Below are positions 26,859 through 30,982 of a stretch of 64,000 nucleotides of DNA, piece after piece. The stretch is from assembly GCA_964508365.1 (NCBI GenBank), contig CAZDTP010000007.1, forward strand, positions 43,507 through 107,506, read 5' to 3'. Each line of letters opens with the position of its first letter. Positions within the stretch are counted from its first letter, which is position 1. Under the pieces are notes generated by a model, which was not told where the DNA came from, did no database searches, and saw only the letters and a list, made by a program, of their open reading frames with translations. Source of the DNA: an uncultured archaeon. Lineage in GTDB: Archaea; Asgardarchaeota; Lokiarchaeia; Sigyniarchaeales; SOKP01. The position numbers and the translations under genes are program-made.

Positions 26859-27770
26859 ATGGACAATAAGTGTATCGAATCTTATATAAAAGCAGGTAAA
26901 GCAGTGAAGGCTGCTAAAGAATTAGCCAAAAAGCTAATTAAACCTGGAGTGACTTTTTTAGAAATTGCGAACAAATGCGAAGAAGAAATTATCAATCAAG
27001 GTTGCAAATTATCATTTCCAATAAATATGTCACTTGATAAATACGCTGCCCATTATAGCCCAATAATTGACGATCCAACAGTAGTACCTGATAGAGGATT
27101 GTTAAAAATAGATTTAGGGTCTCATTATAATGGATATATTGCAGATTCTGCAATCACTTTTAATATAAACAATGAACCTGAACTGCAAAACTATATTGAT
27201 GCTGCTAAAGAAGCACTTGATGCAGCAATTAGACTTTTTAAGCCTGGAATAAAACTATATGAAATTGGAGAAGTGATTGCCGAAAAAATACTTAACCGAG
27301 GGTTGAGACCAATAACTAATCTTGGCGGACACGAGTTAAAGCAATATAATCTGCATGCAGGTCCATTTGTCCCTAACTATAAAGATTTAAATCACAATAA
27401 AGTTATTCAGCCTGGGGAAGCCTACGCTTGTGAACCATTTGTTACTTCTGGCATTGGAATTGTCGTCAACGGTAAGAAATCTTATATTTATCGATTTGCG
27501 AAGAAAGTCAAAAAAAACCTCCCATATGAAGAATTAAACTACATGAAGAAGATAGAAAAACTTACTAACTACCTACCATTTTCGCCACGTTTAATCGAAA
27601 AACATAATATTATCCCAAAAAACAAAATACAAAAAATAATTGATATTTTTATAAGAAAAAGAATATTAGATCATTATCCTCTTTTAATAGAAAAGACTGG
27701 AGCTCCAGTTGCTCAACAGGAGCATACAATATTAATAGATCTAGATGGAAATACAATTGTCACCACCTAA
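26859..27770 (+). CDS. map: Methionine aminopeptidase type II
   Basis: AAHYSP, KIDLGSH.NGYIADSA, NLGGH..KQY.LHAG, YACEPF, AQQEHTI. Confidence 0.95.
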   Translation: MDNKCIESYIKAGKAVKAAKELAKKLIKPGVTFLEIANKCEEEIINQGCKLSFPINMSLDKYAAHYSPIIDDPTVVPDRGLLKIDLGSHYNGYIADSAITFNINNEPELQNYIDAAKEALDAAIRLFKPGIKLYEIGEVIAEKILNRGLRPITNLGGHELKQYNLHAGPFVPNYKDLNHNKVIQPGEAYACEPFVTSGIGIVVNGKKSYIYRFAKKVKKNLPYEELNYMKKIEKLTNYLPFSPRLIEKHNIIPKNKIQKIIDIFIRKRILDHYPLLIEKTGAPVAQQEHTILIDLDGNTIVTT

Positions 27771-27780
27771 TACAAAATTT

Positions 27781-28629
27781 ATGGAAAATCTCACAAGTGT
27801 TATTCTTTGTGCCGGTAAAGGGAAACGCGCTAAAGGAATTGCGGATGATATACCGAAGCCATTAATAAAAGTTATATCATTAAATAATCAATCTATTCTA
27901 GCAATTCTAATATCACATTTATATCGATTTGGTATTGAACCAATTGTAATAGTAACTGGATATTTAGGTGAGCAAATTGAGAAATACATTATTTCATCTC
28001 AAGCAAAAATCCTATACAAAAGCGAGATGATAATAATCACCAACGCTGGAAATCGATATGAGTTAGGTCCTTTGCATTCTTTTCTAAGTATTACAAGAAA
28101 TAAACGGGTTTTTAAAACTAATGAACTTTTTCTTGTTATTCCGGGAGATACTATTTTTGACTACAAACTTATGGAAAAAATTTTAAATTTGCTTAAAGAT
28201 AATTACTCTAAAGTTAATCAGAATTCCATTATTTTTTACCGAAGAACTAACAAATTAGCACTAAATAAAGAGACCGAAAAATATGGACCAATGCGTAATA
28301 AAATACTATCTTGCATAAGAACAAAGGAAGAACGCTCAAAACAATATGTTAAAGAAATATTTCAGAGAAACATAAATACATTGTCAGATGAAGAAGAATT
28401 CAATCAGATTATCCCGATTTTCATTATAACTTATGATTATGTGAAAAATTTTGAGAATCTTGCTAGCAAGATAAAATTGAATAAAATTGTTGATGCTGTA
28501 AACTTATCTATAAAAAACCAAATGGAATTTTTAACATGTAGGGTTAAATCAGAACATAATTTTTACGATGTTGATACTGCCTCCGACTTAAAACTTGTGA
28601 ACGAGCATTATAAAAAAAGTGGACAATAG
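27781..28629 (+). CDS. Nucleotidyltransferase (NTP transferase family)
   Basis: VILCAGKGKR...IPKPLI N-terminal motif and C-terminal YDVDT..DL; ATG at 27781 preferred to 27745. Confidence 0.8.
   Translation: MENLTSVILCAGKGKRAKGIADDIPKPLIKVISLNNQSILAILISHLYRFGIEPIVIVTGYLGEQIEKYIISSQAKILYKSEMIIITNAGNRYELGPLHSFLSITRNKRVFKTNELFLVIPGDTIFDYKLMEKILNLLKDNYSKVNQNSIIFYRRTNKLALNKETEKYGPMRNKILSCIRTKEERSKQYVKEIFQRNINTLSDEEEFNQIIPIFIITYDYVKNFENLASKIKLNKIVDAVNLSIKNQMEFLTCRVKSEHNFYDVDTASDLKLVNEHYKKSGQ
28612..28618 (-). terminator. Putative oligo-U terminator of the candidate ncRNA
   Basis: T7 run on the minus strand directly after the closing helix (...GTCCAC TTTTTTT). Confidence 0.4.
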
Positions 28630-29083
28630 TAGCTCCGATTATCACAGAAAACTTGTTTCAATGGATTATCTTTTTTTTTCCAATGAATGGTATCTGGATC
28701 AAAGCCCTATTGACTATAAATCTAATTTTAAACGAGGGCTTTCATGTTTTAATGTCACGTGTAGCAAATAAAAATGTTATTCATTCTACAAGAGATCAGG
28801 CAAAACAGCTTCGAATTACCATAGATTAAGAAGAACTTAATTGCTTTTCTCTACAAAATAATTGCTCCAGCGTGAGAATTATTGAAAGCGTCCAAAATTA
28901 ATAACAAATGATTATAGAGTATTTTCAGTGTGAAAAAATTAATAAAACCGATTGGAAACCAATGTATAAACATTTACTCTGGGTTAAAAAAAAATCCAGG
29001 ACACAAGAATCAATTTGCAACAACTACTCCGTTGTTTAAATTGCACTTACGTATCAAAAACCAATGATTTAAACTATTGTCCA
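28620..29083 (-). ncRNA. Candidate large structured non-coding RNA, family not identified
   Basis: 11-bp terminal inverted repeat TGGACAATAGT (28620-30) / ACTATTGTCCA (29073-83); internal hairpins (e.g. 29011-29043, 28701-28742); TATA about 24-31 nt upstream and U-tract downstream on the minus strand; no long ORF. Confidence 0.5.
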
Positions 29084-29105
29084 AATAATTAGATGGGAAA
29101 ATGAA

Positions 29106-29113
29106 TATTTAAA
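29106..29113 (-). promoter_or_regulatory. Putative archaeal TATA box for the candidate ncRNA
   Basis: TTTAAATA on the minus strand, about 24-31 nt upstream of the GGACAATAG 5' end at 29082. Confidence 0.4.
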
Positions 29114-29219
29114 TTTAACTATTAACCTAAATAATATAAACATCCTATTAATTACAGAAATATTAATTTAATCTAATATTATCTCTCAGAAATAAGGTAC
29201 AGACAAAAAAAAGTTCCGT

Positions 29220-29606
29220 ATGAAAATGTCTCTGAAAATACAAATTGATCTTTTTGGGATAGGAACAATCAGCGGTGAAATGATACGGTATTATGCACCT
29301 TTATCAGCTGATGCAATAATTAATAAGCTGCCGATGGTGCTAAGAGGAAGGTTTAGTTTCGGATCAAAAGTCTATTGGACTCTCCTGGGAGTTGAAATTT
29401 TTAAGGGAACTAATCCAAAATCTAATAAAAATGTAGAAGAAGGAGATATCATTTATAACCCTAAATCTGATGAATTAATATTTATTTTAGAAGATACAGA
29501 ATTACAAACTAAAGTAAATAAAATCGGAAAGGTTACTGAAAATCTCGAATTCTTTCTGCGAGCGAAGAATGGTTTGAATACCAAAATATCTAAGATGAAA
29601 TCATAA
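29220..29606 (+). CDS. Cyclophilin-like fold protein (TM1367-like)
   Basis: RYYAPLSADAI..KLP...GR...VY...VEEGDIIY.P..DELIF.L pattern. Confidence 0.7.
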   Translation: MKMSLKIQIDLFGIGTISGEMIRYYAPLSADAIINKLPMVLRGRFSFGSKVYWTLLGVEIFKGTNPKSNKNVEEGDIIYNPKSDELIFILEDTELQTKVNKIGKVTENLEFFLRAKNGLNTKISKMKS

Positions 29607-29630
29607 AATCAGACTTTTCAAGAGTATAAA

Positions 29631-30449
29631 ATGGCGATTTCGAACAGATTAATTGTAGTGTTTATTTTTTTTTATTTAGGAGTTATATTATATTTAATTT
29701 TATTTCTCGCCGTCCCAGATATCCAAAACGCCATAATACAATCGCGTCACGAGATTACGGGACTTACAGAGGGATCTAATTACTTAATTGCCCTTCTTAT
29801 CTCATTTTTCATCTGTCTTATAGGAAACGCGAGCGTTGGGTTTCCAATACCTTACCCTTTTATATTATTTTCGCTTTCTAATTCAATTTTCATCAGATAT
29901 TTACATCTTGGATTAACATTAGATGAAGTTCTTTTGAACGGACCTTTTTGGTTTGAAATTCTACTTATAGCAGTAATAGGAGGTATAGGGAGTGCAATTG
30001 GTGAACTTGTTGGATTCCTGATTGGGATTGGTGCAAAGAAAGTTGTTAAACGAACCCAATCTAAGACTCTTGAAAACGTACAAGGTTTTGGCAAATTGAT
30101 ATTAGATCATCCAAAAACTATGCATTTGTATATATTTATTGCTGCAGCTCTTCCTATTCCTGACGATCCACTTTGGATAGCTCTAGGAATGTCCGGAAAA
30201 AAAATAAATTTCACGCGCTGCATATTATGGGCTTGGGCAGGTAAAAATTTAACTACAATATTTTATGTTTCATTTCCAATTTTGATTTTACTAGGATTTA
30301 CGGCAACAGGAATAGAAGTAAGTGATATTTCAAGTGTCATAACAGAATCCATTATGTTATTAATCACGCTTGCTATAATGCAATTCATACTATCATTTAA
30401 TTGGGAGAAGTACTTAACAAAGAGAAGCGAAAAAAGATTACCCGAATAA
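29631..30449 (+). CDS. DedA/VTT-family membrane protein
   Basis: GIGSAIGELVGFLIG, FIAAALPIPDD.L.IALG and AWAGK motifs. Confidence 0.8.
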   Translation: MAISNRLIVVFIFFYLGVILYLILFLAVPDIQNAIIQSRHEITGLTEGSNYLIALLISFFICLIGNASVGFPIPYPFILFSLSNSIFIRYLHLGLTLDEVLLNGPFWFEILLIAVIGGIGSAIGELVGFLIGIGAKKVVKRTQSKTLENVQGFGKLILDHPKTMHLYIFIAAALPIPDDPLWIALGMSGKKINFTRCILWAWAGKNLTTIFYVSFPILILLGFTATGIEVSDISSVITESIMLLITLAIMQFILSFNWEKYLTKRSEKRLPE

Positions 30450-30649: not shown

Positions 30650-30982
30650 CTAATGGAGTGATTTTGAGAGGGTTATTTCGATTTTAGAAATTAAATCCTT
30701 TTTATTTTTGTTATTATAATTGTTGCTGTTGTTTTTTCGATAATTATTCCTTTGCCTATTTTCAAAGAAAGGACGGCTCCCTAACGAGATATTGGCTATC
30801 TCTACTCCTGGATACATACGTTTTTTTAAAATTTCAGCAACTTCAACCGCAGTTGAAATTTCTTCTCCTTCCCCTTTTATTAATAGCGATTTTGTTCCCC
30901 CTGAAAATGCAAAAATTGCATCCTTTATTGTTTTCTCCCGATCAGTTCGATTTCTTATTATAAGGGTTGTGTCATTAGGCAT
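30650..30982 (-). CDS. Alba-family nucleic-acid-binding protein
   Basis: LLIKGEGEEISTAVEVAEILKKR...VEIANISLGS...ISKIEITL matches the Alba fold. Confidence 0.8.
   Translation of the reverse strand: MPNDTTLIIRNRTDREKTIKDAIFAFSGGTKSLLIKGEGEEISTAVEVAEILKKRMYPGVEIANISLGSRPFFENRQRNNYRKNNSNNYNNKNKKDLISKIEITLSKSLH

Follow-up and report, generated by a model that had tools for sequence, protein, structure and literature searches.

A probable new family of large noncoding RNA spanning the genera of one Lokiarchaeial family

Introduction

Among the noncoding RNAs (ncRNAs) described so far, those closest to the one considered here are OLE (RF01071), ROOL, GOLLD and the raiA motif, which are several hundred nucleotides long, carry a promoter and a terminator of their own, occur as one copy in one lineage and in a given gene neighborhood, and had no known function when they were discovered. 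We find comparable attributes in an element on the minus strand (28620-29083) of a 64,000-nucleotide stretch of contig CAZDTP010000007.1, from an uncultured archaeon of the Lokiarchaeia (assembly GCA_964508365.1). This whole stretch is called the window below, and all coordinates refer to it. The element occupies the gap between a gene coding for an NTP-transferase-fold protein and a cyclophilin-like gene. In contrast to this RNA, the OLE, ROOL, GOLLD and raiA RNAs have ornate, GC-supported folds, and they share no sequence or covariance-model similarity with it; the RNA of the window is archaeal, has a GC content of 29% and displays few conserved helices outside its terminal helix and its 3' domain. 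The RNAs of RNase P (RF00373) and RNase MRP (RF00030) resemble it in the closing helix, the multidomain size and the single-copy, housekeeping-like gene, but they are built around a CR-I/CR-V core that is missing here, where the P4 helix is also unsupported. The Y, 7SK and vault RNAs are likewise comparable in their conserved terminal helix, U-rich tracts, variable interior and inferred role as protein platforms. However, the RNA described here has four to five times the length of Y RNAs and no match in Rfam.

To our knowledge, large conserved archaeal ncRNAs other than rRNA, RNase P RNA and signal recognition particle (SRP) RNA are very rare, and no example from Asgard archaea has been reported; full-text literature searching retrieved no description of this one. 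We conclude that the segment from 28619 to 29084 on the minus strand is very probably a genuine ncRNA gene, representing a new family. As judged from the sequences compared, the family is not in Rfam, its gene is single copy and convergent with the NTP-transferase gene, and every one of the 13 genera of a single Lokiarchaeial family has it. The same comparisons point firmly to a housekeeping-type, independently transcribed RNA whose ends would be locked in a sequence-conserved helix.

A covarying terminal helix on the minus strand

The original prediction of a large structured RNA at this site included a perfect 11-bp inverted repeat, which is indeed present (TGGACAATAGT at 28620-28630 and ACTATTGTCCA at 29073-29083). 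Taken by itself, this repeat is only marginally beyond chance, with perfect inverted repeats of at least 11 bp lying at least 300 nt apart in 94 of 2,000 dinucleotide shuffles of 28550-29150 (4.7%). Folding was modestly better than that of shuffled sequences on both strands (z of -2.7 and -3.3). It is by conservation and covariation among homologues, and not by the repeat alone, that the element is established as real.

The predicted transcript is about 465 nt long (28619-29084, minus strand), its ends being inferred from the promoter spacing and the terminator; window coordinates are obtained by subtracting the RNA position from 29084. The two ends of the RNA form a helix of 11 to 12 bp (GGACAAUAG/CUAUUGUCC), designated P1, in which the 5' strand UGGACAAUAGU (29073-29083, minus strand) pairs with the 3' strand ACUAUUGUCCA (28620-28630, minus strand). 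The latter is opposite to the last codons and the stop of the NTP-transferase gene. In an alignment of 54 nonredundant sequences from the 13 genera, in which 12 terminal pairs were evaluated, 96.4% of the cells were paired and five pairs showed compensatory changes, for example from GGAC/GUCC to GGAG/CUCC, GGAU/AUCC or AGAC/GUCU. None of 500 shuffles reached the observed values, and sliding the partner strand destroyed the pairing. The strand can be read from the non-Watson-Crick pairs of P1, which in 98 sequences comprised 22 G.U and a single A.C when read on the minus strand. This asymmetry indicates an RNA helix on the minus strand and would be unexpected for a protein-bound DNA repeat, so that on comparative evidence P1 is an RNA helix of the minus-strand transcript. 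An internal helix, H-c (see below), contains two U.G pairs in nearly all sequences and can therefore form only on minus-strand RNA. In one subgroup of genus g21 (loci L050, L051 and L077), the terminal helix is shifted outwards (GAAAAGGACAAU/AUUGUCCUUUUC) and part of the terminator T-run pairs with a 5' extension.

The transcription signals are placed as originally proposed. An archaeal TATA box, TTTAAATA (29108-29115, minus strand), is located 23 nt upstream of the 5' GGAC, and an oligo-T terminator (T7; 28612-28618, minus strand) follows GTCCAC directly 3' of P1. The TATA box is invariant or nearly so and keeps a fixed spacing to the 5' arm in all the homologues read, and every confirmed homologue has a T-run after its 3' arm. 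Features expected of an independent archaeal ncRNA gene, namely, a TATA promoter of their own, an oligo-T terminator, conservation and covariation at the RNA level, are therefore all found here. A small coding gene was considered and rejected on indel lengths, flat periodicity and the shortness of the open reading frames (ORFs). The gap between the two flanking genes contains no long ORF, and only 28 of 511 indels among the homologues were multiples of three (remainders modulo 3 of 1, 2 and 0 in 350, 133 and 28 cases, respectively). Variation was flat across phases, without 3-base periodicity, and the median longest ORF was 41 amino acids.

Distribution of the RNA within the family

A BLAST search found the element once in its 4.07-Mb genome (completeness rating, 100%). 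Within the genus, 24 genomes could be aligned to it, either over the whole element, at 66 to 92% identity, or at least at both of its ends. These loci range in length from 412 to 513 nt and have the TATA box 21 to 23 nt before (U)GGACAAUAG and, at the other end, AUCGGAGCNNCUAUUGUCC with the T-run immediately after. Over all homologues, full lengths vary from 358 to 622 nt; the ends stay conserved and it is the middle that varies. The RNA has about 70% DNA identity where the adjacent NTP-transferase protein is 44 to 49% identical. That protein evolves unusually fast (31 to 49% identity within the genus), and the neighboring methionine aminopeptidase and cyclophilin-like proteins range from 56 to 80%.

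Of the 135 genomes of the family, 93 gave exactly one match to a covariance model of the 3' 100 nt (R1); they belong to genera g1, g18, g20 and g21 in our numbering. The remaining genera were reached through conserved synteny or through the pattern formed by the promoter plus the 5' end. Both arms and the T-run were recognized in this way in g11, g12, g13, g14, g15, g16, g19 and g22, and g17 was added by the 5' pattern only (promoter and 5' end). Hence, the RNA is found in all 13 genera, end to end in 12 and by its promoter and 5' end in one. The pattern TTTAWATA-N18-26-GRAYAATAG matched 106 of the 134 other genomes of the family; some of these matches are due to chance, as a reversed control pattern also gives matches. 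The 3' motif was also found in 97 metagenome contigs, of which at least 52 are confirmed homologues with both arms, and some of the rest are chance matches.

The homologue search did not find the RNA outside this family. Pattern matches in four other families lacked the 3' partner and the CAUUGG motif, occurred at the rate of the control and were discarded. In a closed genome of the neighboring family, the site convergent with the distant NTP-transferase homologue, which corresponds to the place of the large RNA in the family of the window, is occupied by a tRNA gene. This tRNA gene (anticodon CCU region) lies at about 2168-2243 on the minus strand of locus L206 (G037:C1).

The idea of a new class of large Asgard ncRNA is thus supported by this comparison, with a minus-strand gene, a covarying terminal helix, presence throughout the family and no Rfam match. 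The conservation and covariation proposed as a test are both observed, in that the element is conserved across the family and P1 covaries.

Anatomy of the RNA

All features in this section are on the minus strand and are described from the 5' end. Just inside P1 lies the 5' motif CAUUGGUUUUUGAUAC (29051-29066; family consensus GCAUUGG-N4-5-GAUAC), which is probably unpaired. It is the most widely conserved internal motif, kept in all genera, and no consistent pairing partner was predicted for it in 98 homologues. It is followed by hairpin H2 (29011-29044), an RNAalifold prediction with an outer stem CAAUUU/AAAUUG and an inner stem AACAAC/GUUGUU; other subgroups have a different inner stem (UACAG/CUGUA or CGGU/ACCG). 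An internal oligo-U tract (U9; 28986-28994) lies about 90 to 100 nt from the 5' end, and a U-run is found at the same position in nearly all homologues and genera. A close relative carries a 412-nt version of the element (L005, G004:C267, 1450-1861) in which about 60 nt, comprising the 3' half of H2 and the internal U-tract, are missing. This could be either a natural deletion variant, which would make that part dispensable, or an assembly error.

The copy of GGAGC in the center of the RNA, CUGGAGCAAUUAU (28858-28870), is kept across the alignments. Each RNA has two to three copies of this word, a 16-fold enrichment over dinucleotide shuffles, and CAUUG and GAUAC are enriched 3.7- and 3.1-fold. 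CAUUG is quasi-palindromic, two copies pairing as C-G, A-U, U.U, U-A and G-C, which is exactly the core of H-b (see below). In genera g14, g15 and g22, one CAUUG lies close to each strand of P1. Further downstream (28746-28800), the blocks CCUGAUCUCUUGU and GCUACACG(A/U)GACAUU-AAAC consist of near-invariant columns in 33 to 54 sequences, and a pairing between the two blocks is unsupported by compensatory change. The 3' third in g1, g18, g20 and g21 presents the conserved blocks CUGAUCUCUUGU and UGAUACNCGAGACA, followed by AAUAGGAGCUUUGAU.

The 3' domain (28631-28712) is composed of three helices, H-c, H-a and H-b. H-c is formed by GCUUUGAU (28698-28705) and AUCGGAGC (28632-28639), H-a by 28690-28697 with 28645-28652, and H-b is the hairpin UUCAUUGGA...UCCAUUGAA (28657-28687). 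H-c and H-b are paired in 95% of the cells and scarcely vary. The two strands of H-a remain complementary in at least five different sequence versions (mean duplex z of -1.6). P1 and H-c could stack coaxially, since they share a continuous 3' strand. In one bin (G014), the locus occurs in full twice, with slight differences, on contigs C57 and C117 (L064 and L006), and in one of the copies a G-to-U change breaks an H-c pair; the bin has 9% contamination, and the two copies therefore probably represent two strains.

When the middle of the RNA was scanned for column pairs that stack and covary, little was found. Two alternative pairings were rejected: that of the internal CAAUAGGAGCU with the 3' end shows no covariation, and that of CUCUUGU with CGAGAC is broken without compensation in part of genus g21. 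Regarding the internal stems listed in the original prediction, the hairpin at 29011-29044, AAAGCCCT/AGGGCTTT, TGTAG/CTACA, TTAAG/CTTAA and ATTGG/CCAAT can all be located in the sequence, but AAAGCCCT/AGGGCTTT and TGTAG/CTACA are not conserved beyond the closest relatives of the window. To call the RNA highly structured would be too strong, given that, apart from the terminal helix and the hairpins of the 3' domain, few helices are conserved. The remark that it is not enriched in GC was accurate, since the GC content of the element (about 0.28 to 0.32) equals that of its flanks and that of the RNA, 29% overall, compares with 45% for the RNase P RNA of the same genome.

Comparison with known RNA classes

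No Rfam family reached its gathering score in the window. When E values of up to 10 were allowed, 28400-29300 and 19 diverse homologues gave only scattered noise with no recurring family. Accordingly, the archaeal RNase P model RF00373 matched neither the element nor the 19 homologues, and neither did any MRP model. A canonical type-A RNase P RNA is found on contig C17 of the same genome (133.5 bits, 45% GC). Archaeal SRP RNA (RF01857) had no match on the element either, the SRP RNA of this genome being located elsewhere. The latter (C5:103671-103994, L022) covers the whole archaeal SRP model of Rfam with 68.8 bits, below the gathering score of 96.5 bits, and would therefore be missed by standard annotation. 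Neither 16S nor 23S rRNA genes were found in the metagenome-assembled genome of the window (G000), although it is rated 100% complete; the stretch read of G093, a closed genome related to it, showed no more of the 16S rRNA than its final 124 nt.

Other classes could be set aside as well. There are no C/D or H/ACA boxes, and the small nucleolar RNA (snoRNA)-type matches are noise (22 bits against a threshold of 55) that does not recur in the homologues; inspection of the alignments revealed no conserved register for a K-turn. ARAGORN found no transfer-messenger RNA or tRNA-like structure in 28000-29800. A Y RNA was rejected given that the 100%-complete genome has no TROVE (Ro60) domain, which was matched in the control genomes. 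A search for La domains had no match in this genome, nor in any of the control genomes, and is thus uninformative. The likeness of the 5' motif of one subgroup (AUUGG..GAUACAGA) to human U6 small nuclear RNA is taken as chance: U6, like all Rfam models, has no match above noise at E up to 10, and the likeness is not conserved across subgroups.

A possible protein-binding scaffold and its alternatives

Taken as a whole, the explanation that we favor, with moderate confidence, is an independent ncRNA gene whose product serves as a protein-binding scaffold. The mechanistic part, i.e., that the RNA acts as the core of a ribonucleoprotein (RNP) or as a protein sponge instead of a compact ribozyme, is plausible but more tentative. 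It is preferred over a compact ribozyme because of the low GC content, the few conserved helices, the single-stranded motifs, the repeated words, the U-tract and the variable middle. The terminal helix would close the molecule, protect its ends and be itself recognized. The functional core would reside in the conserved terminal regions, that is, the 5' GCAUUGG..GAUAC motif and the 3' hairpin domain. Binding sites might be provided by GGAGC (two to three times), CAUUG (three to four times) and UUGAUAC together with the internal U-tract, where an Sm-like protein might bind, and the variable middle (total length of about 360 to 620 nt) would act as a spacer.

Several points weigh against this explanation. 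No expression data were located for this genome among metagenome contigs and small-ORF look-ups, which returned no metatranscriptome contig or record; the metagenome contigs do not end at the boundaries of the RNA, and exact look-ups of internal small ORFs led to one metagenomic contig. In archaea, an internal tract of U8-10 should act as a terminator, which means that a short 5' isoform may be common and that 5' RNAs of about 100 nt could make up most of the transcripts. The reading of the motifs as putative binding sites comes from their enrichment. Being nearly invariant, H-c, H-b and the motifs carry no covariation evidence, and they could be conserved just as well for tertiary RNA contacts or for base pairing to a target. 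Finally, the low GC content and the small number of helices leave room for a structured core that the MAFFT-based alignments may have overlooked.

Base pairing to a target is the basis of the first alternative, a trans-acting RNA (guide or antisense regulator) in which the unpaired GCAUUGG, CGAGAC and GGAGC pair with rRNA precursors, tRNAs or mRNA starts. It would account for a 5' motif that is kept in all genera without a predicted intramolecular partner and for the two to three repeats of GGAGC; besides, CAUUGG complements CCAAUG, and GGAG resembles the core of the Shine-Dalgarno sequence. However, we identified no target, the boxes of C/D and H/ACA guides are absent, no snoRNA-type match rises above noise, and archaeal antisense small RNAs are not typically 465 nt long and closed by a terminal helix. 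We consider this explanation unlikely.

The position of the gene suggests another possibility, a cis-antisense or convergent regulator of the NTP-transferase gene, with transcripts that overlap at their 3' ends. The two genes are convergent, with touching or overlapping 3' ends, across the genera, and their linkage is kept in g14. Yet an overlap of 10 to 60 nt at the 3' end does not need an RNA of 465 nt with a covarying helix and distal motifs. In addition, the NTP-transferase was undetected beside the RNA in g15, and the linkage may be mere conservation of gene order, all of which leaves this regulator with quite a small chance of being correct.

The original prediction had proposed a highly diverged RNA of the RNase P/MRP type. 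In this or a related form (another catalytic RNA, or a second P-like ribozyme with its core drawn from the terminal regions), a ribozyme would fit the P1-like terminal helix, the multidomain size and the single copy. Furthermore, CGGAGCUAC by P1 recalls the eukaryotic CR-V, and a pairing of UUCYG with CGGAG is possible in many sequences. However, this P4-like candidate (UUCYG before the U-tract with CGGAG by P1) is paired in 64.7% of the cells, no better than in shuffles, has no covariation and is missing from an entire subgroup. A canonical RNase P RNA is encoded at another site of the genome, the RNase P, MRP and SRP models give no match up to an E value of 10 in the window or in 19 homologues, the GC content is 29%, and the middle of the molecule evolves fast. 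The proposal of a diverged RNase P/MRP relative is consequently not upheld, and a catalytic RNA of any such type seems to us very improbable.

Lastly, an element acting at the DNA level, be it a miniature inverted-repeat transposable element (MITE), an invertible segment or a replication origin with inverted protein-binding boxes, can be practically discarded: it would explain the AT richness, the terminal inverted repeats about 440 bp apart and the repeated short motifs, and two arms that bind the same protein would be expected to change in concert as well, but the copy count of one in this genome, and one per genome across the family at a fixed syntenic site, speaks against a MITE, none of the four Orc1/Cdc6 genes is on this contig, the G.U asymmetry (22 versus 1) points to RNA, and the TATA box and T-run stand just outside the arms at fixed distances.

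Gene neighborhood

The NTP-transferase-fold gene (27745-28629, plus strand; 294 amino acids) reaches into the element, its stop codon (28627-28629) falling within the left arm of the inverted repeat (28620-28630). Its last codons (KKSGQ-stop) are the complement of the terminator and the 3' arm of the RNA (28612-28630). On the other side is the cyclophilin-like gene (29220-29606, plus strand), and an Alba-family gene (30650-30982, minus strand) lies about 1.6 kb from the RNA, in a block that is the same in most genera. The conserved gene order is methionine aminopeptidase, NTP-transferase, the RNA (antisense), the cyclophilin-like gene, VTT/DedA and Alba. In genus g14, the cyclophilin-like/VTT/Alba block is on another contig and the RNA still adjoins the NTP-transferase gene; in g15, the NTP-transferase was not detected beside the RNA. 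Alba-type proteins bind RNase P/MRP RNAs in eukaryotes, and the Alba-family protein is a possible partner of this RNA, to be taken as a mere lead.

Implications

That all genera of a species-rich family keep one copy of the gene implies an RNA-based function, probably a housekeeping one. The defined ends of the RNA, its conserved motifs and a set of over 100 natural variants also offer a handle for its study. A more speculative proposal, which we advance with reserve, is that the RNA forms the core of an abundant housekeeping RNP peculiar to this large family of Lokiarchaeia. In such a particle, the closed terminal helix, the Sm-type U-tract and the repeated CAUUG and GGAGC would organize several proteins or several copies of the RNA, and it would be in its logic an archaeal counterpart of the eukaryotic 7SK, Y or vault particles or of the bacterial OLE particle. 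Asgard archaea are the closest prokaryotic relatives of eukaryotes. Nevertheless, because this RNA is confined to one family and evolves fast, what it can tell us is probably more about the invention of lineage-specific RNPs than about the origin of eukaryotes.

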